IMG/VR virus record: IMGVR_UViG_3300013232_000047
Span: 32,001 to 96,000 of that record
Source of the DNA: a virus
Length of the DNA: 64,000 nucleotides
Strand: one strand, 5' to 3'
Shown: one piece after another, positions 3,001 through 64,000 of the stretch
Numbering within the stretch: the stretch's first letter is position 1
Layout of the letters: each line of letters starts with the position of its first letter
Notes under the pieces: model-generated
Told to the model about the DNA's origin: nothing
Databases searched by the model: none
The model's input: the letters and a program-made list of their open reading frames with translations, nothing else
Program-made: the position numbers and the translations under genes

Positions 3001-5658
3001 GCAGATAGAAGCAGCGTGTCCGGGGTTGACAACATCTTTTGCGAGTTATTCTACGGACAAGGAGAGTTTTTTCCGAAAAGCTTATCAAGCGTACATGAGT
3101 CTTTTGCAGCAGGCTTGGTTTTTGAAGGATATGTGTCAGATGCCGTTTACACGATTGAAGGAGGACAGAGGTGGTATGGAGGAAATTTCGTGGTCGATGA
3201 ACCGCCACGAGTTGGCACTGTCTCAAGAGCTATTGTCTTTGAATATTCCGAATTATCGGGAGTACGTATACAGTGGGAACAAACGAGCCGACTTTGGGCT
3301 GATTGGCACGAACATCCTGATAGAAGTGGACGGAGATTACCATGTAGAGGCTCAAGACAAAGTCAATACAAGCATAGCCGAGCATTTAGGCTATCAAGTA
3401 CTGCGCTTCACAACACGCCAAGTCCAATTCAAAATGTCGGCGGTGATTGCCGAAATACAGGGCGCTTTGAAGCAGTCATTCAGTGGCGTTCCGTTGGTGT
3501 CCAAGCGGTGTGGGACATTGAAGTTGAAGGCGACCACAGCTACTTAGCACAAGGTCTTTTTCATCATAACTCATGCCGGGACCCAAATTTGCAGCAGCTA
3601 CCTCGTGATGGGGAAGTTAAGAGCCTTTACATTTCTCGATTTGGGAAGCGTGGCTGCATGTATCAGGGCGATCTTTCACAAGTTGAGCTGCGTCTGATGG
3701 CATCGGCTTGCGGTGATCCGACCATGGTTAAGGCGTACTTTGACGAAACAGACCTTCACACGCTTACAACTAGCCGTATTTTTAACACGCCTTACGAGCA
3801 TTTTAGTAAGGACTACATGAAGTGGCTTCAGGAGAGGCATAGAGACAAGGAAGCCAAGGAATTGAGTCAAAAGCGTAACATTGGAAAGTGTGTCGATCCG
3901 TCTACACTGGTGTCTGTAAACGGTCGAATCACGCGTATCGGTGATATTCACGCAGGAAGGGAAGAAGATACGTTTTATCCGATGAGCGGCAGGCACGTAC
4001 AGACTCCGAACGGCACGCAGGAAATTAGAGAATTTTATTGTAGCGGCATAAAAGAAAGAGTGCTTGTATGCAGTTTACACGGGATTATCAGCTGTAGTCC
4101 AAATCACCGCTTTCAACTTGCCGACGGTAGTTTGATTCAAGCGTCTCTTTTGAAAAAGGGTATGCTGTTGGCTGATGGCCAATCCTTGGTATGCGAACAC
4201 GTAAAAGCTGGCGTGTTTTTCGACCCATTTGGCACTTCGCCTAAATCAAATGTGTTCCAGATAAATATAACTCCAGATTTAGCTTACGTTCTTGGTCTGT
4301 TTTATGGTGATGGATGCTCTAACCTCGGTGAAGTTTCTATCTGTACAGGTGGAACACCCGAGTTTTTTGAATGGCAGGACATCATTGCGGATTCAGTGAG
4401 AAGGGCTGGTTTTTATCCAAAAATTGACCGAACAGTTTGGAGTAGTGAGGTTAGTGGGCCAAAAGTAATTAAGACAGGACCCACGGTTGGGCAGGAGATT
4501 AACGGAGCTTACGGACTTGTTAACTTTGGATGCACTAGGGTTTCCGACTTATTTATTCAGCTTGGGGCTGTAGACGAGACACGTTTTCGACGGCGGACGC
4601 TTACTTTACCTGAATGGATGTTCAACGCTCCAGACGATGTAAAATTGGAGTTTATTGCCGGAGTGCTGGATACGGATGGCTATGTAAAAAAGGACGGTAG
4701 CGCCTCTATTTGTACAAAATCGTGGCGATTTGCCCAAGACTTAATGGTGCTTGTTGGAACACTCGGCATTGCCTGCACGGTTGCGCCGGACTGGAATAAA
4801 ACCTACGAGCGCTATTACTTTATAGTCCGTTTTGCTCGACGTGACTCACACTTGTTTGCAGATAAATTGCGTAATCCCGGCAAGCGTGGCAGGATTAAAC
4901 CGGTAGTGTTTAGGTACTCAAAACGTGTTAAAAATAGGGTGACCTTGGTAATGGAGCAGGAACCTTCAATGCTTGTAGAGATCGCTATTGATAGCCCACA
5001 TCTGTATACTCCTGAAGGACTTACAACTCATCAAACGGTAAACTTCTTAACAGGTTATGGAGGAGGAGCTTTTGGGCTTCAAAACGTGTTAGCAGCCAAG
5101 TCTATCTATTTGAGCATCGAGCAGTGCGAAGCTATTATTGAATCCTTTTTCGCGTCGTACCCTGCTCTCCAGCGGTTCCTGATGTATTACAAGCAATTCA
5201 TAGTGGAGCAGCACGTGGCTGTTTCTATTTTTGGACGTGTCAGGGTGTTTGAAGAAGTTCAAGGTGACGACCAAGAGGCTAAAGCCAAAGCGCTTCGGGC
5301 CGGGTGTAACCACGTTATTCAATCGACGGCTTCAGACATGATGCTTTTGGCACTTGTTGCCATCGAAGACATGATGAAAGAAGCGGACCTTGAATCCATT
5401 TTGGTATCAACAGTGCATGACTCTCTTTTGGTAGATTGTGTACAATCTGAATTGCCTGTGGTTCACGATATTGTGACAACTGTTTTGAATAATTTTCCAA
5501 CAGTGCTGCCTGCACTGCTTGGCGCTGATTTTGATACAAGCTGGCTTCTGGTCCCCTTCACGGGGGACTGTGAAGTAGGCTTGGATTATTTGAGTGCAAA
5601 GTCCATTCCAAAGGATAACATCGACTGGGACAAACTTCTGTATCCTAGCAATGAGTAG
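1..5658 (+). CDS. polA: Family A DNA polymerase with N-terminal uracil-DNA glycosylase-like domain, 3'-5' exonuclease and two inteins (probably 5'-truncated)
   Basis: Exo I YDTETTG; TRGGRL|SCRDPNLQQLP; motif A DLSQVELR; motif B KRNIGK|TVNFLTGYG; motif C TVHDSL; CxxC..C N-terminal UDG-4-like region; frame is open from base 1. Confidence 0.95.
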   Translation, partial: KAVRYDKFYRDVLLYWHGETLIEDVDTGKTRVPSALVTLFDPNNPLGAEPLQPGAASPICAKCKLFETGCKSPFMQPVGSETPLVTIICDSVTKNEDAKGQISIDGFPGWIAKIIHACREETGVSLDDIRWFPLTRCANAGKAKVDYKIKGNWCRYHLVDDLMRHPPKLIIPVGTASLGMLCHKSNAQDWQGKLLTYRGWPDDWLTDKRFVLPRPHPVDATKQITGHPVFGEVPSVRIPMMPIQSPRLVLLAMNKVVTARWKQILVNAMKLVKEGVKPKVYTRPWYRFTTDPDVAAEGLCEIINNPGMLLCYDTETTGLKPWSFHKLCTTKLPTPPAIVSMMFRWSDPKTGNSRSIGFPWDYEASPMKPYLKILGPLVYEALTKSKLIGHNLTFDVLYTFATLYQKWLVGWDNPEFNKKRDRWLCALADAAKFDTWHAAYTYMQRVGSLGLEIIAYDWAPELAGYEEDMVLLIELHKEAMHPGENKGGHYLNCDKKYWPTHVIPYVMGDVESCFLASGRLREKLKSTEGRRYNIPLARPGSPGRFRFYTPLSRAFVYESIMVPAAAVLMKIMGRGMTVDLKKLNQMETALPKTISDLRTKLKQETPAIGQWCEEQASLTPGWELDLENKGHLKDLLFNVLNLPVQRFTKNGKKFYGEDEKAWSENIESAVKKRFPDLAEVELTKKIREEWLEFAATDKFTLNRMAVDHESVRPLQDYRKVYKLYSTYVRPLRNITVVGLDKKARVKDPHLCSDACIHASFLMTGTRGGRLCVSGDTRLEVRVDGVKKVVVISDLWKHINQHVTVKTHCGRWQRIKRLYFKGYERMFEATTESGGTVKATAEHRVFSERGWQSLGVVAGQKLKLFVDLASATRTGFERTKFSEVGATKTNEFSADERNDFKACGFTELAGLPSVESGTSTVASGAFGRCSEGQRKWSENAVSSAARGQIGGFDQPWNTHRAHREGDENNAFFSRTEHSGVWVAEIGQRAGSCQSSDRVSTEADRSSVSGVDNIFCELFYGQGEFFPKSLSSVHESFAAGLVFEGYVSDAVYTIEGGQRWYGGNFVVDEPPRVGTVSRAIVFEYSELSGVRIQWEQTSRLWADWHEHPDRSGRRLPCRGSRQSQYKHSRAFRLSSTALHNTPSPIQNVGGDCRNTGRFEAVIQWRSVGVQAVWDIEVEGDHSYLAQGLFHHNSCRDPNLQQLPRDGEVKSLYISRFGKRGCMYQGDLSQVELRLMASACGDPTMVKAYFDETDLHTLTTSRIFNTPYEHFSKDYMKWLQERHRDKEAKELSQKRNIGKCVDPSTLVSVNGRITRIGDIHAGREEDTFYPMSGRHVQTPNGTQEIREFYCSGIKERVLVCSLHGIISCSPNHRFQLADGSLIQASLLKKGMLLADGQSLVCEHVKAGVFFDPFGTSPKSNVFQINITPDLAYVLGLFYGDGCSNLGEVSICTGGTPEFFEWQDIIADSVRRAGFYPKIDRTVWSSEVSGPKVIKTGPTVGQEINGAYGLVNFGCTRVSDLFIQLGAVDETRFRRRTLTLPEWMFNAPDDVKLEFIAGVLDTDGYVKKDGSASICTKSWRFAQDLMVLVGTLGIACTVAPDWNKTYERYYFIVRFARRDSHLFADKLRNPGKRGRIKPVVFRYSKRVKNRVTLVMEQEPSMLVEIAIDSPHLYTPEGLTTHQTVNFLTGYGGGAFGLQNVLAAKSIYLSIEQCEAIIESFFASYPALQRFLMYYKQFIVEQHVAVSIFGRVRVFEEVQGDDQEAKAKALRAGCNHVIQSTASDMMLLALVAIEDMMKEADLESILVSTVHDSLLVDCVQSELPVVHDIVTTVLNNFPTVLPALLGADFDTSWLLVPFTGDCEVGLDYLSAKSIPKDNIDWDKLLYPSNE
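2311..3570 (+). mobile_element. Intein 1 in polA (420 aa)
   Basis: Starts CVSGDT, block B TAEHRVF, ends VWDIEVEGDHSYLAQGLFHHN followed by Ser; removal restores GGRL-SCRDPNLQ. Confidence 0.93.
2402..3547 (+). CDS. Vsr/DUF559-like endonuclease overprinted in +1 frame inside intein 1 (true start uncertain, perhaps 2620-2680)
   Basis: YREY..RADFGLIGTNILIEVDGDYH..LGYQVLRFT motif, preceded by HTH-like IPIERIAKEM segment. Confidence 0.8.
   Translation: MLQSKHTVGDGSESNVCTSRVTSGCLKQLLKAAARLKQQPSTGFSVSEDGSLLGLLPDKSSSYSLIWHPQLGLVLNEQSFRRLALQKQMSFQQMSETISRRVALRSWRAYPQLKAELQRLHRARLADAQKGNENGRRMPSVALPEAKLEALISRGIPIERIAKEMKTTPFLVERNIQVYGLQKLGNAPVRARVLTEFQLKQIEAACPGLTTSFASYSTDKESFFRKAYQAYMSLLQQAWFLKDMCQMPFTRLKEDRGGMEEISWSMNRHELALSQELLSLNIPNYREYVYSGNKRADFGLIGTNILIEVDGDYHVEAQDKVNTSIAEHLGYQVLRFTTRQVQFKMSAVIAEIQGALKQSFSGVPLVSKRCGTLKLKATTAT
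3889..5034 (+). mobile_element. Intein 2 in polA (382 aa) with LAGLIDADG endonuclease and C-terminal Gln
   Basis: Starts CVDPST, block B SPNHRF, LAYVLGLFYGDG and FIAGVLDTDG motifs, ends TTHQ followed by Thr; removal restores motif B. Confidence 0.93.
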
Positions 5659-5914: not shown

Positions 5915-7245
5915 ACAACAAAGTTAAACGTTTGGTGGAAATGGCGCTCGATCTCGGCGGAGCGCCAGACTGGATTGACCGTGAAAAGAAACGGAAGATT
6001 ACAAGTCACGAGCATCCCTACGCACAGAATCCAGCCTTCCCGCGTGAGCCGGGTCCCGGTTCGTTTCCACAAGGCGAGGGTGAGCCACGTCCCGGTCAGG
6101 TTCGTAGCTACGCGGAGCTAGTTGCCTCAGACGTTTATCCGAAGATTGTGCGGAAGCTTCAGGCATCTCTGGGTGGCCAGATTCCACGTGGTGGCCCGAT
6201 GCAAATTTTGCAGATGCTTCAAGGAGCGCTTCAACGGGCAGTTCAGTTTGAGCAGGGACATGAACGGGAGCTGGAGCAGGCAGCTGTTCGCGTTGTGCTC
6301 GATTTGCCTGAGTTCAAGGATGCCAAGGCGGCGTATGCTGACGGTGACTTAAAGATAGTAGCTCAGCTTCGCCCGCAAATTGATCTTGGCGGCACCAGTG
6401 TCGAACCGGAAGCTCCAGATGAGGAACAAGAGGCGGAGCTTGAGATTGCGCAAATTGCGCAGGAGCTTGACCTTGAAAAAGAGAAGCGCCGAATGGTGAA
6501 CATGATGATTCAAGGCGCGGCAATAAATAAAAACCATGCCTACATGCAGATTGAGCAGGAGCTTCGGCGGATTAATCCACAAATTGTAAACACTTACGCT
6601 TTGTTGATGTCCGGCGGTGAACTTGCCTATTGGGTCCTGCCTGAAGAAATGCAGAAGATGATGTCTGGCGGAGGTGGCGGAGGTGGCGCTGCTGGTGTGG
6701 AAAAATTGAGTTTTGATGAGAATGGCACGCCTGTTATCACCGCACAGGCCGTTGTGTTCCCCGTGCTGATTCAGGAACTGGTCAAAGGGTTGATGGAATT
6801 CTATTCCTACGACGACAACGCGGACCCGAACACGCAGAGGCACGTCCATGGTCAAACAGATACTCTCGGTAATGAGCTTTGGGACATCAAGTTTGGTCCA
6901 GCTGTCTGGCGGCAGATTCTTCGCATGATTGGCGACGACAACCAAGAGTACATGCCTTACATCTATCGGCATTTGCTTGAATTGCCGACGACTGAATTTA
7001 ACACTCGAATGCAGCAGTTTTTGAGAGGCGAGCCTGAAGGTCGTCAGTTCATCGCTGATTTGGTTACACAGATCAAGAAGGAACATGAAGGCGAAGGTCA
7101 GCAACAGCAGCCTGAATTCGGTAGCGAACCTGCACCTGACGAAGGTGGCGAACCCGGCGCTGAGCCGGGGGAAGACGATAGTGCTGATTGGTGGAAGCAG
7201 GAGTCCGGTGCCAAGAAAATTGTCAAAGATTTACTGGGGGAGTAA
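5911..7245 (+). CDS. Hypothetical protein, possibly head-internal
   Basis: 444-aa ORF coupled to upstream gene; N-terminal VKRLVE and C-terminal KIVKDLLGE motifs. Confidence 0.75.
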   Translation: MNNKVKRLVEMALDLGGAPDWIDREKKRKITSHEHPYAQNPAFPREPGPGSFPQGEGEPRPGQVRSYAELVASDVYPKIVRKLQASLGGQIPRGGPMQILQMLQGALQRAVQFEQGHERELEQAAVRVVLDLPEFKDAKAAYADGDLKIVAQLRPQIDLGGTSVEPEAPDEEQEAELEIAQIAQELDLEKEKRRMVNMMIQGAAINKNHAYMQIEQELRRINPQIVNTYALLMSGGELAYWVLPEEMQKMMSGGGGGGGAAGVEKLSFDENGTPVITAQAVVFPVLIQELVKGLMEFYSYDDNADPNTQRHVHGQTDTLGNELWDIKFGPAVWRQILRMIGDDNQEYMPYIYRHLLELPTTEFNTRMQQFLRGEPEGRQFIADLVTQIKKEHEGEGQQQQPEFGSEPAPDEGGEPGAEPGEDDSADWWKQESGAKKIVKDLLGE

Positions 7246-7590
7246 AGTTTCTTTTTTGCACTCCGGGCAGGCATAAACAAGAAAGCTTTTATCATCAAGG
7301 GCGATTCCTCGAATGGGATCGCCTTTAATGCGTACTCCACAGTGCCCACAGCTTCTACCGGGTTTCAAAGCAGCTTCCGCTTTCTTAGCAGATACCAACG
7401 CAGCAGCTCCGCTGATTACAGGCAGCGATTGGGACGGTTTAGGCGTACTCGTTAAGGCACACTGCAGCAGATCCATCAGGGTGCGATTTATCAGGAAGAT
7501 TATCAGAACGGTGCTTGTAAGCGTAATCAGTGCTACAGCTGAACAGGCCAGTAGCAGCCCAATCCAAGTTGTTGTGGTATTCTCAAGCAT
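7231..7590 (-). CDS. Membrane-anchored zinc-ribbon protein
   Basis: N-terminal hydrophobic helix; CGHC...CPEC. Confidence 0.6.
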   Translation of the reverse strand: MLENTTTTWIGLLLACSAVALITLTSTVLIIFLINRTLMDLLQCALTSTPKPSQSLPVISGAAALVSAKKAEAALKPGRSCGHCGVRIKGDPIRGIALDDKSFLVYACPECKKETLLPQ

Positions 7591-7748
7591 AAATTTTTTA
7601 GTTTACAACGCCTACGGTATGTGTACGCTTCATCTATCGTTACATTTAAGAACTGAATATATGCGAGAAGCACTAAACACCGCTTGGGCTGAAACAGGGG
7701 CAACAGGCTATGTGTTTTGATAATCTCTCCATACAAATTCTACCGTTT

Positions 7749-9743
7749 ATGCTCGAAATAAATACTCGTATAGTGGAACTCCGCAATCTCATTCGCCAGT
7801 ATGACTACTTCTACTACGTGGTGGATGTTCCTAAAGTTGAAGACCATATCTACGATAAGCTCTACAAGGAACTGCAGGATCTGGAGACTAAGTACCCTGA
7901 ATTCTCCGATGTGAATTCACCAACCAAACGCATCGGTGGCATAGGTTCAAGCGGCTTTATTAAAACCAAGCATGATCGGAGAATGCTTTCGCTTCAGAAC
8001 GTCTATAACGCAAAGGAAGTTTTGGACTATTTTGGCCAAGGTGAGGAGGGAGTCTTGGAGCCAAAAATTGATGGCTTATCATTGAAGCTTATCTACAAGG
8101 AAGGAGAGCTGTACAAGGCTGTTACGAGGGGTAACGGTGAATTCGGCGACGATGTTACAGAGAATGCCCGGACTATTGTCAGCATTCCGCTGGTGTTAAC
8201 CAGTCCTACTGATATCGAGGTTACAGGTGAGGTCTACATGACCTATTCCGTGTTCAACAGGCTGAACGAAGAGCTGGAGGCAGAAGCACTGGAACAGTTC
8301 GCTAACGCTCGCAACGCTGCAAGTGGAACACTGAAACTCAAAAGTTCGGCGGAAGTTGCCAAGCGTAATCTGTCCTTTGTTGCGCACGGTAGCGTTACGG
8401 AATTTACGGAAATTGAGACACAGATGGAGCTTATTAGCATGTTGGAAAACTTAGGTTTTCAGACGACGTTCATGCTGCCAGTGCTTTCATCGTGTCCTAC
8501 GGTGACTCGATTACTGACATTCGATAATGCGTACGATATTCAAAAAAGCATAGAGAATGCGGATATAAATCGGAAGTTTCTTAATTTGGCGACGGATGGT
8601 TTGGTATTCAAGCTTAACAACTTGAAAAAACAGCGTGAATTAGGCGAAGGCACAAAATCTCCTCTATGGGCTTGCGCTTACAAGTTTCCGCCAGAGCGAA
8701 AATCTACAACCCTTCTCGACGTTACCCTTCAGGTTGGCAAATCAAGTAAGATTACACCGGTCGCAGAACTGAAACCTGTCCTTTTAAGCGGGACCTTGGT
8801 TAAACGGGCGAGTCTTTGTAATCAGGACGAAATTAATCGTCTTGGTGCTAATATCGGTGATGAGGTCTATGTTGAGAAGTCGGCAGAAATTATTCCCAAG
8901 GTCATGGGGGTCGCGAATAAGGTAACGGGTGGTGTCTATAAAATGCCCGACGTCTGTCCCTGCTGCAGGACCAAGCTGGTGAATCCAAGCGGCAAAGTAG
9001 ACTGGTTCTGCCCTAACCGTGACTGCGATGATCAGGTGTACGCCCGGCTGCGCCACGCAACAGGTAAGGCTGCTCTCGATATGGACGGATTCGGAGCGTC
9101 TATGATCCGTGAACTGATGACGCATGGCGTTCGTAAACTTTCAGACATATTCTTGCTTGATAACCTCACTTTTCTAAAAAATTCGGCTCGTAAAAAGCTT
9201 TTGGAAGGGCGCATTGCAGCAAAGAAACAACCGTTTTGGCGACAGCTGCACGCGTTGGGCATCGAAGGCATTGGCCAGACAACTTGCCAAGAAATTGCTG
9301 CTCAGTGGACTTCCCTTATTTCAGTCTTCGATGAGCTTGACAGGTTCAAAGAATTGTTCGGCGAAGTAGCCTTTAATAGTTTCCTTGAATACTACGCGTG
9401 TGAGGAACAAGAGCTGAATACGCTAGAGGCGTGCGGACTCACGTTTGAGACGGAACGGAACGGTATAGGAAGGCTCGCTGGAAAAGTATTTGCCATCACC
9501 GGAACCTTGATGTCAGGCAGTCGCGATCAAGTGATGCGTCGCATTGAGGCTGCAGGTGGAATGGTGAAAGCCAATGTTAGCGCGAAGTGCCATTATCTGG
9601 TTCTAGGCACAGACGCTGGTGCAATCAAGCCGGGCAAAGCGGAGAAGCTGGGAGTACCTGTCATAACAGAAGAACATCTGTATGAGATGATAGGTGAAGC
9701 GATGCCGGTTGCTCCGGAAGTAGAACCAGAAAGGGAGTATTAA
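7749..9743 (+). CDS. ligA: NAD-dependent DNA ligase
   Basis: EPKIDG adenylation motif, TRGNG, NARNAASG, Cys4 zinc finger, HhH repeats, BRCT (FAITGTL). Confidence 0.97.
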   Translation: MLEINTRIVELRNLIRQYDYFYYVVDVPKVEDHIYDKLYKELQDLETKYPEFSDVNSPTKRIGGIGSSGFIKTKHDRRMLSLQNVYNAKEVLDYFGQGEEGVLEPKIDGLSLKLIYKEGELYKAVTRGNGEFGDDVTENARTIVSIPLVLTSPTDIEVTGEVYMTYSVFNRLNEELEAEALEQFANARNAASGTLKLKSSAEVAKRNLSFVAHGSVTEFTEIETQMELISMLENLGFQTTFMLPVLSSCPTVTRLLTFDNAYDIQKSIENADINRKFLNLATDGLVFKLNNLKKQRELGEGTKSPLWACAYKFPPERKSTTLLDVTLQVGKSSKITPVAELKPVLLSGTLVKRASLCNQDEINRLGANIGDEVYVEKSAEIIPKVMGVANKVTGGVYKMPDVCPCCRTKLVNPSGKVDWFCPNRDCDDQVYARLRHATGKAALDMDGFGASMIRELMTHGVRKLSDIFLLDNLTFLKNSARKKLLEGRIAAKKQPFWRQLHALGIEGIGQTTCQEIAAQWTSLISVFDELDRFKELFGEVAFNSFLEYYACEEQELNTLEACGLTFETERNGIGRLAGKVFAITGTLMSGSRDQVMRRIEAAGGMVKANVSAKCHYLVLGTDAGAIKPGKAEKLGVPVITEEHLYEMIGEAMPVAPEVEPEREY

Positions 9744-31956: not shown

Positions 31957-32413
31957 TTTCATAGTTCCAGACTCTGCTGTTTTCGGTTCCTTTTTTAGGG
32001 CTAACTTTTTCTCGGATTATTTCGTAAGAATACAGTTTGAGTGGCAACGACCATACGTGCGTTTTACATCTGTTGCAGTAGCAGCCGAACAGGACCCACG
32101 AAGGAGACCGGCGACGCCACACACCGCGTGGCTGATGAGGTGTAATGTAGCGAGGGTAAGTTATGATTTTGTCTAATTTGCTTTCGCAGTGAGCGCAAAT
32201 TAGTTTCTTTTTCTGACGTTCCAGCCATCCACGTTTCCAGAGGCGCTGGGCGGTTGAAACGCTGCGGTCGATGGCAGTGCCCACTTGTTCCCAGCTCTGA
32301 CCTCGTTCGCGAAGTTCACACATTAACTCCCAGCGCCGGGCTGAGTTTCTCCTAGCCCATGACCCGGCGTGTAATCGAAAAAGTTCGCGTTTGCTTACGA
32401 CATCTGCATTCAT
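31916..32413 (-). CDS. HTH and zinc-ribbon hypothetical protein
   Basis: GQSWEQVGTAIDRSVSTAQRL HTH; CAHC..CNRC; GTTCTTTAGTTAAG upstream. Confidence 0.65.
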   Translation of the reverse strand: MNADVVSKRELFRLHAGSWARRNSARRWELMCELRERGQSWEQVGTAIDRSVSTAQRLWKRGWLERQKKKLICAHCESKLDKIITYPRYITPHQPRGVWRRRSPSWVLFGCYCNRCKTHVWSLPLKLYSYEIIREKVSPKKGTENSRVWNYEMVPRHGNAPCSAR

Positions 32414-57181: not shown

Positions 57182-58657
57182 ATGGTAATCCTCTCTGAAA
57201 GTGGACGGCCAGTTCTGGCGAGTGATGGCGGGCATATCAGCCGCTTCACCGACATTCTGGAGTGGGGCTACCGTCTGGCGGAAACGCCTGTCGGCATCCC
57301 TGAGAAGAATCCTCGTGGCTTATGGGAAGCGCGTGGCTGGAAAGAGTTCGTGGCGCACATGCCCGAGCACAAACGGCCTATCGCTGCCATCATGCTCGAA
57401 AATTGCCGGTCTCGCTTCGGTCGTCTCGACGAAGTGACCCGCACGACCTCACTCGGCACGTTCGATAAATGGATTTTCCCCATTATCGCCAACATGTCTG
57501 AGAATGATGTCATTGACCAGCTGATTGCCCTCCAGCCTATGGCTGGCCCGGTCTCTCAGATCGTCTACATGGACATCGTGACTGGTCGCCGAAAAGGTCG
57601 CACCCCGGCTGGTTCGCCCATGTGGCGTGCTCTGCAGGGCGCGGTTGACCGTGACGACGACGCTGATGAGCTGATTCAGGACGAGAGCGGAACCACAAAC
57701 GGTTCTGGCGTACTCGTGCTGGAATGGACTCCTATCCGCGCCGGGACTGTTACAGGCACCGTGGGTGCAGCTTCTGTTGCTGACGATGGCAATGGTAACA
57801 TGATCAACGTCGCTACAAACGCCGTTGTGGGTGCTATCATCTATCAGGGCACAGGCGCTGGTGCAGTTAACTTCACCTTGGGTGGTGGAGCATACCAGAA
57901 CGCGGCTTACAGCCTGACGTATGCGTTCAATTCTGAAGGCAACCTCGCCATTCAGGACTACGAAATGAAGCTCAGTTCGACTCCTGTCACCGCAAAGGTG
58001 ATGAAGTTGAAAACGCTGTGGTCGGAAGAAGCCGATCAAAACTTGCAAGCGATGTATAACATCAAGGCGGAGAGCGTCCTGCTCAATGCTCTGACAAATG
58101 CGTTGCAGTACCAGAAACATCGTCAGGTCATCTTTGACTTGCGTGCCAAGGCTGATGCAGGTTTCGTGGTTTGGGACGCTATCGCCCCGGCGAGCGTTAA
58201 CTACCAGACGCATAAGTTCTCCATCATTGATGCCTTCGAGACTGCCTCGAACTTCATCTTTGGAAGTACAAACATGGTTGCTGGTAACTGGTTGCTGCTT
58301 GGTCTCCAAGCTGCGACTGTTGTGGCCACGCTGCCTCAGTTCGTACCCAAGAATGCTCGCACCCAAATGCAAGGAATTACTTATTTGGGTGACCTCGGAA
58401 ACAAGAAGGTCTTTGCTGATCCTCACTATCCGAACAACGAGTTTCTGGTTGGTCACAAGGGCGATCAGTTCTTGACGACTGGCTACGTGTTGGCTGAGTA
58501 CCAAAAGCTGTACACCACGCCTGATATCGTTCTGCCTGATTTCATCCATCAACGCGGGTTTGCTACGAGTTTCGCTCGTAAGATGATCAACGCGAAGATG
58601 TACTGTCGCGGCCTCATTCAGAATAGTCCAACGGCATTCGGTCAAACTATTGGCTAA
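57182..58657 (+). CDS. Major capsid protein (T4 gp23-like)
   Basis: AIMLEN, LQPMAGPVSQIVY, VTAKVMKLKTLWSEEADQNLQA, GHKG..GYVLA.Y; directly after protease. Confidence 0.92.
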   Translation: MVILSESGRPVLASDGGHISRFTDILEWGYRLAETPVGIPEKNPRGLWEARGWKEFVAHMPEHKRPIAAIMLENCRSRFGRLDEVTRTTSLGTFDKWIFPIIANMSENDVIDQLIALQPMAGPVSQIVYMDIVTGRRKGRTPAGSPMWRALQGAVDRDDDADELIQDESGTTNGSGVLVLEWTPIRAGTVTGTVGAASVADDGNGNMINVATNAVVGAIIYQGTGAGAVNFTLGGGAYQNAAYSLTYAFNSEGNLAIQDYEMKLSSTPVTAKVMKLKTLWSEEADQNLQAMYNIKAESVLLNALTNALQYQKHRQVIFDLRAKADAGFVVWDAIAPASVNYQTHKFSIIDAFETASNFIFGSTNMVAGNWLLLGLQAATVVATLPQFVPKNARTQMQGITYLGDLGNKKVFADPHYPNNEFLVGHKGDQFLTTGYVLAEYQKLYTTPDIVLPDFIHQRGFATSFARKMINAKMYCRGLIQNSPTAFGQTIG

Positions 58658-58675: not shown

Positions 58676-58708
58676 AAAAGCCCCCGGAGTTTCCTCCGGG
58701 GGCTTTTT
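58676..58708. terminator. Bidirectional intrinsic terminator between capsid gene and TIGR array
   Basis: AAAAGCCCCCGGAG-TTTC-CTCCGGGGGCTTTTT. Confidence 0.9.
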
Positions 58709-58721
58709 CGCTTATAACCTA

Positions 58722-59824
58722 TGGTGCTTTAACCCTGCACGGCTCGCTCTCACGTGTTGGTGCTCTCTACCTATCTGGCTCGCTCTGTAGTATCGGTGCT
58801 CTTGCTCGCTCTGGCTCGCTCATCTATAATGCTACTTTCACTTATTTTGGCTCGCTCGTTCATCACGGTGCTCTCATGTGTGACGGCTCGCTCACATCTC
58901 GTGGTGCTCTTCGCGGCTGTGGCTCGCTCTTCAGTTTTGGTGCTCTCTCGGTCTCTGGCTCGCTTCTTTACGTTGGTGCTCTCTACCTATCTGGCTCGCT
59001 CTGTAGTATCGGTGCTCTTGCTGGTTATGGCTCGCTCGTAATCTTTGGTGCTCTCAGCTTCCCCGGCTCGCTCTATTTCATCGGTGCTCTCTGAAATTGC
59101 GGCTCGCTCAGTCGCTTTGGTACTCTTTGTGGCCCCGGCTCGCTCTTTCATCTCGGTGCTCTACTTCGCAATGGCTCGCTTCTTTCCTGTGGTAATCTCT
59201 TAGGCTATGGCTCGCTCTATCGTTTTGGTGCTCTTCCTTTCAAAGGCTCGCTTCCGCATTTTGGTGCTCTCGGGTTCAATGGCTCGCTACTCCTGCTTGG
59301 TGCTCTTTGGCGATTTGGCTCGCTCTGTGTCTTTGGTGCTCTCCGACATGGCGGCTCGCTCGCGCTCTACGGTGCTCTTCAACGGATTGGCTCGCTCCTG
59401 CTGGTTGGTGCTCTCTGTCGGCACGGCTCGCTCTACTGTTTTGGTGCTCTCACGGTCTCTGGCTCGCTTATTCTTTTTGGTGCTCTCCTGCCATTTGGCT
59501 CGCTATCTTACTGTGCTGCTATTGTCATTTTTGGCTCGCTCGGGTTCTACGGTGCTCTATGCGTCCTTGGCTCGCTTTCCTGATGTGGTGCTCTAGCTTC
59601 TTGTGGCTCGCTCATCTATAACGTTGCTGTCACCTTTTCTGGCTCGCTCAATCTTCGTGGTGCTCTCTGGCTTTGTGGCTCGCTCATCATCTCTGGTGCT
59701 CTCCCTTGAGGTGGCTCGCTCCTAGACTTTGGTGCTCTTCGTTTACGTGGCTCGCTCTCGCATCACGGTGCTCTCGTATGTAATGGCTCGCTTGCATTCA
59801 ACGGTGCTCTACGTCTGTTTGGCT
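58722..59824 (-). repeat. TIGR-type array 2: 31 units of 36 nt
   Basis: Minus strand AGCGAGCCA-9 nt-AGAGCACCA-9 nt; exact 36-nt phase checked at 58722, 59082, 59442, 59802. Confidence 0.92.
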
Positions 59825-60081
59825 TAAATTCGTCGCCATTCTGCAATTGCTCGCATGTTGCTGGAAGGAACTTGGCTGGGTGCGTATCGACCCGTTTTTT
59901 CAATCAATTTGTCTTTTCTAGCTTGTCGAAAAACGCATCCCCAAGCGTTGGGATGCGCTGGATTTGCAGATTGGTTTTGATGTGCCTTAATGCGGATATC
60001 ATCAGAGTTAAAGAGTGTTCCGATGGGAATCCGGATGATGAGACGCATAATTTCCTCTTGCCATGCGCTGTGGTGTTGCAT
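59824..60081 (-). CDS. Small basic protein between arrays (winged-helix-like)
   Basis: FNSDDIR..PAHPNAWG.VF..LIEKTG pattern. Confidence 0.7.
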   Translation of the reverse strand: MQHHSAWQEEIMRLIIRIPIGTLFNSDDIRIKAHQNQSANPAHPNAWGCVFRQARKDKLIEKTGRYAPSQVPSSNMRAIAEWRRI

Positions 60082-60083
60082 GT

Positions 60084-60998
60084 CTAGCTCGCTTTCGCTT
60101 CTGTTGCTTGTCTGTCTAAAAGGTCATTCAGTTTAAGGACTAGGCGCTGTAGTGCCCTGTAGTCTTTCAGGTGGGTATAGTACTCTGTGACGATATTTTC
60201 AACGGTTGCTGTGTCAAAGGACGTACCGTCGATGATCAGGTTTTTGTCACTGAATCCCCAGCGGCAGGATTTGATCTTTTGAACCTGCAGCGTAGCTTGT
60301 GCCTCTTTCAAAATCGTAGCCTTGTCTTGGACGAGCTTCTTGCCCGGCAGGATGATTCTGGACTGCCACGCGCTGATCTTGTCCTTGTCTACGGCCTGTT
60401 CCACTACGATCTTAGTCTTGCCATCCGTTGTCACCTTTCTAGGGATAAGGAGAGTTTTGGTTTTAAGGATGTGATCCTGTGTATCGGCGGTGGCTTCTGT
60501 CATTATGACGCGCTGATAAAGCGGGCATCGGGACGTGAAAAACTGATAGCTTATACGGTTACGGCCAATCGCGTCTAAAGCACGCAGAAAACCTGCGTCG
60601 ATGCTGGGACAGTTCCGAAGGATATCAGCATCTATTTCAGCTTGTTGTCCGGACGGCGTGCGATCAATCCAAGCGACATAGAGAATTCCGGTAGCTGTCC
60701 ATGCCAGATGTCCAAGGTTAATGCCTCGTATGAACGCTTTTTTAAGTTCCCCGAGGTCAGTCGGAACTAGCAGACGCGATTTAACAAATTCATACGTCGT
60801 CACCGCGTCTGGTGTTGTTGTGAGCAATTCCTGTAAGGACTGCTTGTCGTTAGTTTTAGTGTTTGTGTTTGTTGGTTTAGTCATATATTCGCGCAACTCC
60901 TGTGTTTGTGCGCCCAGTCGGAACTGGGCGCGGTTATGTTGCCGGGCCATCATCGACCCGCGCATTCTGGATATGGCGTTGTTTAATGCTTCGCTCAT
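60084..60998 (-). CDS. Hypothetical protein between arrays
   Basis: 304-aa ORF; start overlaps the last degenerate repeat of array 1. Confidence 0.7.
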   Translation of the reverse strand: MSEALNNAISRMRGSMMARQHNRAQFRLGAQTQELREYMTKPTNTNTKTNDKQSLQELLTTTPDAVTTYEFVKSRLLVPTDLGELKKAFIRGINLGHLAWTATGILYVAWIDRTPSGQQAEIDADILRNCPSIDAGFLRALDAIGRNRISYQFFTSRCPLYQRVIMTEATADTQDHILKTKTLLIPRKVTTDGKTKIVVEQAVDKDKISAWQSRIILPGKKLVQDKATILKEAQATLQVQKIKSCRWGFSDKNLIIDGTSFDTATVENIVTEYYTHLKDYRALQRLVLKLNDLLDRQATEAKAS

Positions 60999-61004
60999 TT
61001 ATTT

Positions 61005-61459
61005 TGGTGCTCTCTGGCTTTGTGGCTCGCTTGCGCATCTCGGTGCTCTCTTCCGCAATGGCTCGCTCTTTGGTTCTGGTGCTCTCATCCTGCTTGGCTC
61101 GCTCTGGTAGACTGGTGCTCTCTCCTGATGTGGCTCGCTCGTGTTGTTTGGTGCTCTCTGGTCCATTGGCTCGCTCTTTGTCCGTGGTGCTCTCCTTTGG
61201 TATGGCTCGCTTGCGTTCAACGGTGCTCTCCTTCACTCTGGCTCGCTTACATTCGGTGGTGCTCTCCTGCAATTCGGCTCGCTCCGCAATAGTGGTGCTC
61301 TCCTGCATTCTGGCTCGCTCTTACGGTTTGGTGCTTTCGCCTTGCGCGGCTCGCTCTTTGGTTCTGGTGCTCTCATCCTGCTTGGCTCGCTCTGGTCAGT
61401 TGGTGCTCTCCGGTGTAATGGCTCGCTCATCGGTGTTGGTGCTCTCCCTAATCATGGCT
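61005..61459 (-). repeat. TIGR-type array 1: 13 units of 36 nt
   Basis: Same two alternating 9-nt repeats and 9-nt spacers; starts at the stop codon of the Nop-domain gene. Confidence 0.92.
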
Positions 61460-62601
61460 TAAGCTGCATCTGCGTTACGCTGCGCATCTGTGTTAAGCTG
61501 TGCTTCTGCCTTATTTTTTCCCAACGGATCTTGCAGGTGGGCATGGCCCAGATGTGAGAAAACATAGGGCTTAGGAGGTTCTTTGTGGAAGTGTTGGCGG
61601 TACATTTCTTGTTGAAAATCAGCCAAGAAACGTTTTGCCACCCAGCGTAAAACTCGGTTGTGGATGTGGCCGGGAGCTAGCTTTCCCTGCTTAAGGATGG
61701 CGCGTTGCTCGTGATCGGGTACCTCCCGTAACTTGGCAGCAGCTTGAGCGGCGTACAGTCCCGCTTCGTTACGAGCTGTTTCATAGGCTTTGCGCTCATC
61801 GTAGCTAAGGCTGTAGGTACTGGCGTCCACAAAACCTTTATTTTTACAGAATGAGTCACCGATGTAATGTTGAAGCACTTTGCACCGAGCATTCCAAGGA
61901 CGCAGCGCCAAAGTTTTCACAATCTGATCTCGTGTCAGCTTGACGCGTTTACCCTTGGCATCGGTGGTGGCGTATTTAAGCATCGAATGATAGTTGCGGT
62001 GAAACGTTTCAGACGCACGTGCCAGAATTTCCAGCGGGGTGCCCTTCTGGGCTTTTACCCATGCTTTTGATTTGTCAGCTCCCAACCACTCCTGCTGTGG
62101 ATTTACTCCGAAAATGGACCAGACATCGCCTGCGGTGAGGGCTTTTTCTGGATCAATGTAAGCCACCAGTGCGGCAGCAATTCCGTGCGAGATGCCTCTG
62201 AATTGCATCGCCCATCGGGCCATGGGCTGTTGCTCGGCCCAGTAACGAACTGCGGTGTTAATCAGCTGTTCCTGCTTGGCAGCGTTTTTGTGGAACCATG
62301 TGAGGACTGCAGGCTGGCGCTGCTCTTCTTTTGGTTTGTGTTCCTCGCGTTTTTTAAGGCTTTTAACCTGATTCCCGGCGCTGATTCGCTTGTCCATGGC
62401 TTGCAGATATTCGCCTATCAATATCTTGGCTTCGAGCCGTGGCATTACGCGGACGTCTTCTGCCATGCCTTTCGGCATTTCAGTGTAGCCGATCGCTTCG
62501 GCTATTTTTTCCATGTCAGTGAGAAAGCAGCTCTCTGTGATTCTCACGTCCACTTTTCTTGGTTTGGTCTTGTCCACTTTTCTCTTAATTTTTTTATCCA
62601 T
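61459..62601 (-). CDS. tasA: TIGR-associated Nop-domain protein without nuclease domain (TasA-like)
   Basis: Coiled coil (QAMDKRISAGNQ), FRGISHGIAAALVAYID..AGDVWSIFG, PWNARCK..IGDSFCK, HIHNRVLRWVAKRFLADF; no DEDD RuvC or HNH; array abuts stop. Confidence 0.85.
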   Translation of the reverse strand: MDKKIKRKVDKTKPRKVDVRITESCFLTDMEKIAEAIGYTEMPKGMAEDVRVMPRLEAKILIGEYLQAMDKRISAGNQVKSLKKREEHKPKEEQRQPAVLTWFHKNAAKQEQLINTAVRYWAEQQPMARWAMQFRGISHGIAAALVAYIDPEKALTAGDVWSIFGVNPQQEWLGADKSKAWVKAQKGTPLEILARASETFHRNYHSMLKYATTDAKGKRVKLTRDQIVKTLALRPWNARCKVLQHYIGDSFCKNKGFVDASTYSLSYDERKAYETARNEAGLYAAQAAAKLREVPDHEQRAILKQGKLAPGHIHNRVLRWVAKRFLADFQQEMYRQHFHKEPPKPYVFSHLGHAHLQDPLGKNKAEAQLNTDAQRNADAA

Positions 62602-62761: not shown

Positions 62762-63958
62762 TTATTGAATGCCTTTACCGGCTTTGATAGTTCCAAAAAT
62801 GCCTTGCGCCGCCTGCTGCAAAGGCCGTATACCTGCTACGATACTGGTCAGTGCTTCAGGACTGAAAAGCTTGTCGCGCAGATGTTGACGTCCATTTTTG
62901 ACGAATGTCCACAAGTGAGTGGTCGCTAACCTTACGTGCAGCTCTACCTCTTGGTAGAAGGCTTGTTCAAACGTGTCGAGCTGTTCGATTGGTACGCCAT
63001 TCTTTTGTACTAGGCGCTGTTTGCATGCTTGCCATGCCGCCTGAATCATAGGGTGCCGCAGATGGATTTCAATTGTGGGACCTTGGTTTGGATTAAGGTC
63101 CGAGTTTTGCTGTAATGGCAACGCATCCTTATCTTTTGGATCGTAGGGCTTGTCCACAGTTATGGCCTCTAGCAAGCCGTACGGAACTTTGAATAGTCTA
63201 CCACTACCACGACCTGTTTCTTGTGAGGGAATACGGGGACCGCCCGTGCCAATCGGTATATATGCTTCACCCGCATTGTCATTGTCTAGCTCATGACGAC
63301 GACGACGACGTGTTCCTTTGTATCGCTCTACAAGGATAGTGTTCATGTAGGGCAAGTACTGTTCACCAACCCGGCGTAGTGTTTCATCGTCTATTTCTCC
63401 TCGCATGCTTGCGAAATCGGCAAAATAGTCGTTAATGGCATTCGTAATGAATTGAGGTCGTTTAGACTGGTAGCTGGCTGTCCACTCTTCGACAGGCAGG
63501 TCAGCACCACCTTTGATTCGGTCTTGGTAGTGCAGTGTTCGACGAGACGGGTCAGGAAAAACCTTCGCATCATCTGTGCTTAAAGGCTCCACTACAATAG
63601 CGAGCCGACGGCGTACGGTGTCTGTATTGACCCATGGAAATAGTGCTGTTTTACCACGAGCATGCGTCTGAACGCCGAAGGCTTCAATGATGCCGGGATG
63701 GGCTTCGTGTATGTAGGCAAAGATTGGCACAGATGGTGCGTCTCCAGACTGGTAGCCTGTCCAGCTGTCCTGTCCGGGTTTGCTTTCACCTATGTTAGGA
63801 AAAAGATAAGTCGTTACGTTGGCAGAGACGGTGCTATCTCCGTTAATAAGGACTGTTTCTGTGAAGGGATCGGTGCTAGCCGTTTTTTGCTTACGACGTC
63901 CCATTTCAGCATAGTGCTGTAGGCATTTTTCCATGCCACAGACAGTCCGTTTGTTCAC
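62762..63958 (-). CDS. Hypothetical protein (start may lie further upstream)
   Basis: 398-aa ORF, no motif recognised. Confidence 0.65.
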   Translation of the reverse strand: MNKRTVCGMEKCLQHYAEMGRRKQKTASTDPFTETVLINGDSTVSANVTTYLFPNIGESKPGQDSWTGYQSGDAPSVPIFAYIHEAHPGIIEAFGVQTHARGKTALFPWVNTDTVRRRLAIVVEPLSTDDAKVFPDPSRRTLHYQDRIKGGADLPVEEWTASYQSKRPQFITNAINDYFADFASMRGEIDDETLRRVGEQYLPYMNTILVERYKGTRRRRRHELDNDNAGEAYIPIGTGGPRIPSQETGRGSGRLFKVPYGLLEAITVDKPYDPKDKDALPLQQNSDLNPNQGPTIEIHLRHPMIQAAWQACKQRLVQKNGVPIEQLDTFEQAFYQEVELHVRLATTHLWTFVKNGRQHLRDKLFSPEALTSIVAGIRPLQQAAQGIFGTIKAGKGIQ

Positions 63959-64000
63959 GCCCTTACTTTGTTGTGTTTTCGGCCAGTATTCCTTTTTGCG

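Follow-up and report, generated by a model that had tools for sequence, protein, structure and literature searches.

A two-gene cassette, apparently lineage-specific, at a guide-unit boundary of a phage TIGR-TasA operon

Do protein-coding genes that lie between the TIGR arrays of a phage serve the TasA protein encoded beside them, or are they there for reasons of their own? The locus that raises this question belongs to IMG/VR virus record IMGVR_UViG_3300013232_000047, a linear virus record of 120 kb (completeness 53% by CheckV), of which we analysed positions 32,001 to 96,000; this stretch of 64,000 nucleotides (nt) is called the window below, and coordinates refer to it. On its minus strand, tasA is followed by 13 guide units, a gene for a protein of 304 amino acids (aa), a gene for a protein of 85 aa, 31 further guide units and a terminator-like hairpin (Table 1). 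An earlier note on this DNA had proposed that both proteins are candidate effectors of a nuclease-less TasA and that the locus may define an undescribed subtype. Our analysis favours, with moderate confidence, a different reading, in which the locus is an ordinary dual-repeat TIGR-TasA operon and a lineage-specific pair of genes, the cassette, occupies one of its guide-unit boundaries and is transcribed together with the arrays. A cassette in that position would mean that a single array has been split in two.

The identity of the system follows from its TasA. This 380-aa protein scores 125.4 bits against the NCBIfam model NF052498.1, TIGR_Tas_endo (cut-off 100), matches phrog_4285 at E 6.8e-25 and can be aligned along its length with 29 TasA relatives. 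Pfam gave no nuclease domain at E≤1, and in the alignment only ~55 residues precede the conserved Nop core. Near the C-terminus there is a P-Y346-x6-H353 motif, in which the tyrosine is found in at least 90% and the histidine in all of the 30 sequences (TasA and its 29 relatives). According to passages of PMC13421893, SpTasH relies on Y289 and H296 to cleave its own precursor, and the 7-residue spacing of Y346 and H353 is equal to that of this pair. The aligned residues indicate that TasA retains the tyrosine/histidine (Y/H) dyad that SpTasH uses for processing dual-repeat arrays, and we read the locus as a dual-repeat TIGR-TasA of known kind in a freshwater phage.

Two peculiarities of this TasA were seen in the same alignment: an insert of ~55 aa at residues ~179-233 (window 61903-62067), between the FGxxP...W and RPWNA motifs, which is present in 0/29 relatives, and an N-terminus that is longer and basic compared with theirs. 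No close relative of TasA was found in the phage collection or in IMG/VR. Freshwater metagenome runs do contain close relatives of the locus, which are ~87-92% identical in X3 and ~94-99% identical in X2. Both retain tasA, the 304-aa gene, the tasA-array junction and the array-304 junction, while their spacers differ.

The arrays are highly regular. Each guide unit consists of an edge repeat (GAGCGAGCC), a 9-nt spacer, a loop repeat (GAGAGCACC) and another 9-nt spacer. In both arrays the repeat cores follow each other at exact 18-nt steps, TRF reports a period of 36, and the 13 and 31 units (44 in total) are in register. As the earlier note had observed, both arrays start on a stop codon: TAAGCCA occurs at 61461, where the TAA of tasA is joined to GCCA, and at 59826, where the TAA of the 85-aa gene is joined to the same four bases. 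At each of these starts the edge repeat is reduced to its last 4 nt, AGCC, and the leading A of AGCC doubles as the last base of the stop codon. At both array ends, by comparison, the edge repeat is reduced to its first 6 nt, [G/A]AGCGA, which reads GAGCGA ahead of the 304-aa gene and AAGCGA ahead of the hairpin. The same note had described the final degenerate repeat of array 1 as forming the first codons of the 304-aa gene, and this too is correct: the terminal edge repeat GAGCGAAGC (60996-60988) overlaps these codons, and the ATG (60998-60996) is composed of the final 2 nt of the last spacer B, AAAATAAAT, and G1 of GAGCGAAGC. An in-frame TAA lies immediately upstream of this ATG, so M1 is the earliest possible start of the open reading frame (ORF). 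One public gene call, P0001, begins at M17 and yields 288 aa; M1 is nevertheless the likelier start, because two relatives of the protein, P0002 (56% identical, MSEALN...) and P0004 (25% in the family alignment, MS-LLKE...), align from M1. This arrangement of the junctions is more than chance, given the exact register, the identical splitting of the edge repeat in both arrays and the recurrence of the pattern in related loci.

The two genes are real and truly embedded, in agreement with the earlier note. They share one strand with tasA and both arrays, and the whole series is gapless. Viewed as an insertion, the cassette interrupts a single edge repeat, with GAGCG(A) on one side and (A)GCC on the other. 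The GC contents of the two genes, 0.49 and 0.46, are close to that of the genome (0.491), which gives no hint of a recent foreign origin. Remnants of an array are absent from the genes, where 1 repeat-core match (at ≤1 mismatch) in 1.175 kb compares with a background of 0.74 per kb, and the 304-aa gene holds 1 promoter-like site against 2.5 expected by chance. Neither reading of the sequence nor a consensus scan revealed a terminator ahead of the hairpin downstream of array 2. This hairpin was identified by direct reading only and is missing from the list of the consensus terminator scan; it is a likely two-way terminator, at which minus-strand transcription of the TIGR operon and plus-strand transcription of the capsid-side gene would both end.

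Table 1. Features of the TIGR-TasA locus and its flank (window coordinates).
Feature	Position	Strand	Remarks
tasA	61459-62601	-	380 aa; TAA stop 61461-61459; nuclease-less Nop-domain TIGR-associated protein
TIGR array 1	60988-61461	-	13 units of 36 nt; between tasA and 304-aa ORF
304-aa ORF	60084-60998	-	family without assignment; stop is TAG
85-aa ORF	59824-60081	-	begins 2 nt past TAG of 304-aa gene; TAA at 59826-59824
TIGR array 2	58705-59826	-	31 units; after 85-aa ORF
GC-rich hairpin	58677-58712	.	T/A runs at both flanks; read directly in sequence
Plus-strand gene, virion-like in appearance	57182-58657	+	backs onto hairpin 58677-58712

The arrays also contain traces of their own history. 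Whole units and single spacers are duplicated inside array 1 and common to arrays 1 and 2 (61392-61357 and 61104-61069; 61032 and 59685; 61140 and 59613), and one spacer A recurs as a spacer B. These duplicated and common spacers point to a shared history of the two arrays. The 120-kb record contains no exact self-target site for a tandem pair of spacers; when one mismatch per spacer is allowed, it contains seven matches (a raw count, without control).

To see how genes and arrays meet elsewhere, we used loci fetched from IMG/VR by the edge-spacer-loop repeat pattern. This gave at least 117 loci (L001-L117), and all counts for them, here and below, are among the matches listed. In 83/117 a tasA gene was detected, the encoded proteins being 27-35% identical to the window TasA by tblastn; overall, the TasA proteins of the comparison loci are 27-39% identical to it. 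At 36 of 72 distinct tasA stop junctions, the stop codon overlaps the first guide unit, in the form TAGCC (17), TAAGCC (7), TGAGCC (6) or others (6). The remaining junctions comprise 16 with an array at ≤60 nt in another register and 20 without an array there. Arrays upstream of tasA show the converse arrangement, the terminal GAGCG(N) being separated from the start codon by 0-15 nt; in L034, tasA begins with ATGAGCG and is thus fused to the repeat in the same way as the 304-aa gene. Across loci, the 3′-truncated repeats retain positions 1-5 and the 5′-truncated repeats retain positions 6-9.

The same junctions are found at genes that have nothing to do with tasA. For a SNF2 helicase gene embedded in L021 (Pfam E 1e-15), GAGCG and a further 11 nt precede the ATG and the stop is fused as TAGCC, and embedded genes without known family have the stop fusions TAAGCC (L065), TAACC (L072) and TAAACC (L109). 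Since the fusions recur at tasA and at unrelated embedded genes, the junctions are a property of the arrays and are uninformative on the cargo of the window. Fusion of stop and start codons to repeats is, as these loci indicate, a general layout of this TIGR family rather than a mark of particular cargo. The suggestion of an undescribed subtype finds no support here, as fused boundaries belong to the general family layout and the locus fits known dual-repeat TIGR-TasA.

Several other features of the comparison loci may be recorded here. The 9-nt edge and loop repeats are letter-for-letter identical across the L001-L117 contigs (which were fetched by that very pattern) despite the low TasA identity; conservation of the guide handles far exceeds that of the TasA which binds them. 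SNF2-type helicase genes lie within or directly beside arrays at L021:1866-3452, L121:4430-5866 and L043:7955-9529 (confirmed by Pfam for L021), and the ORF in L121 begins 8 nt past the array. A TnpB / OrfB_IS605 gene (E 1.1e-26; L094:1403-2527, minus strand) is inserted between array and tasA. The TasA ORF at L039:102-2231 (minus strand) encodes 709 aa, with matches to TasA residues 42-172 and 247-359 that flank an insert of ~330 aa, which by eye we suspect to be an intein.

How such an operon might work can be outlined from its layout. One precursor transcript would extend from upstream of tasA through to the hairpin. The array ends suggest that processing takes place between G5 and A6 of the edge repeat, and each tigRNA unit would then run from AGCC to GAGCG (4+27+5 = 36 nt). 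A gene within an array of this kind would have a 3′-truncated edge repeat ahead of it and, behind it, a 5′-truncated edge repeat overlapped by its stop codon. By means of its Y/H loop, TasA would cut the full edge repeats, giving 44 guides and a bicistronic 304/85 messenger RNA (mRNA), whose leader would be the last guide unit, AT-rich just ahead of the ATG. Given the Y/H dyad of TasA, it is plausible that array processing releases the cassette mRNA, as the earlier note had envisaged. If cleavage between G5 and A6 extended to the truncated outer repeats, it would fall within the stop codons of tasA and of the 85-aa gene, and the 304-aa gene would lose its ATG. However, minimal arrays were processed only with full edge repeats, as passages of Faure et al. 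(PMC12045711) report, so cutting at the truncated outer repeats may not happen.

The meaning of the junctions depends on this last point. Phage genes commonly overlap by a few bases. It is possible, although we rather doubt it, that the overlap of stop codon and first guide unit is mere genome compaction, in which case the outer truncated repeats would never be cut, the cassette mRNA would keep its guide-unit leader and the junctions would be without regulatory meaning. The general frequency of small overlaps among phage genes agrees with this view, as does the need for full edge repeats in minimal-array processing (Faure et al., PMC12045711). On the other hand, half of the distinct tasA junctions (36/72) share one exact register, and array ends in unrelated loci split the repeat at the identical position, which is more regular than compaction alone predicts.

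The arrays of this TIGR family could also act as Tas-dependent RNA punctuation, an idea that we put forward as unlikely. Genes would be set at the scissile position between G5 and A6, with stop codons that straddle the cut (U/AG, UA/A and UG/A, where the slash marks the cut). Maturation of the first guide would then remove the stop codon of the upstream mRNA and so couple guide output to the fate of the tasA or cargo message, for example as negative feedback through rescue of stop-less mRNA. At the opposite end of the array, the cut at the last full repeat would define the leader of the cassette mRNA, and the 304/85 cassette would be a natural example of the principle.

We now turn to the cassette proteins, beginning with the smaller one. 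The 85-aa protein matches phrog_27658, a family of small phage proteins, over residues 19-84 (E 7.5e-8), and has no Pfam match at E≤1. In the ESM Atlas its structural neighbours are clusters of small viral or phage proteins, at TM 0.85-0.87, and a portion of a McrB-family protein, at TM 0.73; the nearest named features, WHD_RNase_R and DpnI_C, reach only 0.77 and are flagged as often chance, and the best PDB sequence matches have E values of 0.21 and 1.3. From these resemblances, a winged-helix-like DNA binder is plausible, and the sequence matches place the protein in a widespread small phage family.

Relatives of this protein were collected by a pattern search of IMG/VR, for which the L033 and L043 contigs served as seeds. 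In 20 of the 24 loci obtained, the fetched flanks contain neither an array nor tasA. The 85-aa family thus occurs independently of TIGR loci, contrary to the dependence that the earlier note's proposal implied. The other four loci (L043, L033, L121 and L122) do place a relative near tasA or an array: in L043 its stop codon abuts the tasA ATG, in L033 it lies ~650 nt downstream of tasA, and in both L121 and L122 there is an overlap with the end of an SNF2 helicase gene, whose own start lies 8 nt past an array. L120 has the same pair of helicase and small gene, with no array in the 707 nt upstream of the helicase. As judged from these loci, the linkage of the 85-aa family to TIGR is loose but repeated.

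This pattern could mean that only the 85-aa protein is tied to TIGR-TasA, for instance by regulating the operon as a small DNA-binding protein or by acting as a cofactor, and that the 304-aa gene is a passenger. Such a role would account for the finding that, in all four loci, a relative shares the strand of tasA and is no more than ~2 kb from that gene or its array, in varied positions, with the directly abutting codons of L043 as the closest case; moreover, the window protein recurs with a TasA that is only ~30% identical to those of the four loci. We nevertheless consider this quite improbable. Besides the 20/24 relatives' loci without TIGR nearby, only 2/117 TIGR loci contain a relative, and two of the four positive loci were search seeds. 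Furthermore, the gene follows an SNF2 helicase in L121, L122 and L120, and this pairing, which includes the array-free L120, suggests that the 85-aa gene may belong to another module.

For the 304-aa protein, the earlier note had been unable to name a family, and neither family, fold nor defence-system searches changed this. There was no match in Pfam or NCBIfam (E≤1) or in PADLOC (E≤1), the best PHROGs matches reached only E 0.21-0.30, and Pfam searches with all six family members returned unrelated families only, at E≥0.06. A profile search of the PDB gave a best E of 1.1. The AF2 model had a mean pLDDT of 40.8 without an alignment and 53.3 with one; with this model, Foldseek found nothing in the PDB at E≤0.001, a wide VIA-align search reached a best Z of 4.9 on terminal helices only, and the best BFVD match had E 5.7e-3 with TM 0.14-0.20. 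In the ESM Atlas the only matches were viral clusters without a name and a single DUF3102 cluster, which scored 0.91 but on a low feature count.

The family itself is small. An exhaustive search of 1.84 billion cluster representatives (E≤0.001) gave eight matches, consisting of the protein's own record, P0003-P0006 and P0007-P0009. The four proteins P0003-P0006 are real, distant relatives (27-38% identity); P0007-P0009 were dropped, as they are giant repetitive proteins in which the match spans only ~20-60 residues. A word-indexed search added P0002, at 56% identity, which brings the real relatives to five. Pattern searches of viral contigs, metagenome contigs, genome contigs and the phage collection found no relatives. 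Members share a helical centre that bears the conserved motif L-x-A-[VI]-G-x-x-R; the 304-aa protein has, in addition, a beta-rich region and, at its C-terminus, a long helix. In the family alignment, polar residues are invariant at three positions only, R148, Q174 and Q224; they do not look like an obvious catalytic set, and the protein is probably non-enzymatic.

The family was found in 0/117 comparison loci by tblastn, and a profile search of the same loci also gave 0. Genes embedded in other TIGR loci (the SNF2 helicase, TnpB and proteins without known family) are not related to the 304-aa protein. No ParB family was matched by any of the six family members at E≤10, and PF02195 had 0 matches at E≤10 in the whole 120-kb record (the control was positive in 11/14 genomes). 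A 646-aa protein in L033 that had looked ParB-like by eye was rejected, with no Pfam support at E≤0.001 and no relative in other loci; aligned to the 304-aa family with hhalign, it gave a probability of 0.07%. Finally, in the distant homolog P0010 the conserved core is preceded by 142 in-frame residues, with a 12-residue periodicity of 0.12 as against 0.38-0.47 for a translated array, and this extension without array periodicity counts, if weakly, against array linkage. Residues 1-142 of P0010 contain two proline/arginine-rich repeats of ~43 aa each.

These results bear directly on the proposal that both proteins are dedicated accessory or effector proteins, recruited to DNA by guide-bound nuclease-less TasA in a new TasA subtype. 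We consider this improbable: although both genes are embedded gaplessly in the operon, X2 and X3 retain the architecture, the private TasA insert could serve as a docking site and tasParB-tasA operons with arrays in between offer a precedent (passages of Faure et al., PMC12045711), the 304-aa family is absent from the 117 loci with the same repeats, has no enzyme-like conserved residues and no ParB domain, is unrelated to the genes embedded elsewhere and has in P0010 a member without array periodicity, and TasA represses transcription by itself, without a partner, in passages of the preprint of Xu et al. (10.64898/2026.09.09.750476). The effector claim of the earlier note is therefore mostly unsupported.

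Thus neither cassette protein looks like a dedicated partner or effector of TasA. We infer that both are lineage-specific phage accessory proteins, of which the 85-aa protein is probably DNA-binding. Several observations nevertheless weigh against a lineage-specific cassette in an ordinary operon. The TasA proteins available for comparison were only 27-39% identical, with no close TasA in IMG/VR among the matches listed; since only loci with distant TasA were compared, the absence of the 304-aa gene there is compatible with a partnership limited to this TasA lineage, which is possible. This lineage has the private insert of ~55 aa, and the only close relatives seen (X2 and X3) retain the 304-aa gene. 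Relatives of the 85-aa protein occur near tasA in a second TasA clade (L043, L033, L121 and L122), and in the loci at hand their proximity to tasA exceeds what would be expected of an unrelated gene, even though 2/4 of these loci were search seeds. In addition, the transcription and processing of the operon are deduced from its sequence.

The surroundings of the locus can be described briefly. Upstream of tasA, on the minus strand (window 62762-64000 and beyond; L142:763-2802, 4310-5152 and 7054-7824), there are three genes. One codes for a protein of 679 aa in which a GHKL ATPase domain is recognised (HATPase_c_3, E 6.6e-7), another for an N6/N4 DNA methylase (E 4.8e-30) and the third for a DUF932 protein. 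These minus-strand genes form an island next to plus-strand virion-like genes.

If a lineage-specific cassette is the correct reading, the locus has little bearing on the effector question for nuclease-less TasA, as its cargo looks lineage-specific and TasA represses alone in published work. The more useful outcome is a general rule, by which genes and arrays are joined at the inferred cut position of the guides, with stop-codon overlap in half of the distinct tasA junctions among the matches listed, and by which TIGR arrays bracket diverse genes. This junction rule offers a testable link between guide maturation and mRNA fate. Whether truncated outer repeats are cut is the main question behind the punctuation idea; if they are, guide production would be tied to message fate. 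There is also a warning for annotation: TIGR arrays may be split by unrelated genes, and array finders that stop at the first gene under-count guides.

Compared with known systems, the locus resembles dual-repeat TIGR-TasA, such as FpTasA of Flavonifractor plautii, as described in passages of Faure et al. (PMC12045711): a phage-encoded Nop-domain protein without a nuclease domain, with alternating edge and loop repeats, 9-nt spacers and 36-nt units. The array starts, array ends and terminator of the window fit that description (Faure et al. 2025, PMC12045711). Unlike the systems of those passages, the window array is interrupted by two non-tas genes and has 44 units rather than the usual 5-15, and its TasA differs from other dual-repeat TasA by the private insert of ~55 aa and the longer basic N-terminus.

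A second gene in the tasA operon, possibly with dual-repeat arrays between the genes, is also a feature of TasParB-TasA operons; in passages of Faure et al. (PMC12045711), tasParB genes share operons with tasA, with arrays in between. Here, however, there is no ParB domain in the 304-aa or the 85-aa protein or in the 120-kb record, and the repeats are 9 nt long rather than the 10 nt stated there for TasParB loci. The absence of a ParB match in all sequence tests rules out the published TasParB arrangement for this locus. The overlap of guide units with coding sequence at gene ends recalls the intragenic tigRNAs in tas coding sequences in passages of Xu et al. (2026 preprint, 10.64898/2026.09.09.750476), for which a link between guide maturation and translation has been suggested. 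In contrast to those, the overlap in the window is only 1-8 nt, lies at gene boundaries and occurs also at non-tas genes. In the passages searched of these two sources (PMC12045711 and 10.64898/2026.09.09.750476) no mention of stop-codon overlap or of embedded non-tas genes was found; the phrase ‘stop codon’ occurs once in the text of the preprint (in a figure legend, on array positions) and is absent from that of the Science paper. In these passages, then, genes between arrays are already published only for tasParB, and guide units overlapping coding sequence only for tas.

Should array processing act on messages in the manner outlined above, the closest parallels would lie outside TIGR systems. 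Self-processing punctuation is known from the cutting of precursor CRISPR RNA by Cas12a or Cas6 and from the tRNA punctuation model of mitochondria. The protein, the RNA and the chemistry are all different from those of the window locus, which is not a member of either group. The likeness, if our inference about processing holds, would be one of analogy, in that structured RNA units between coding regions are excised and thereby define the ends of mRNAs.

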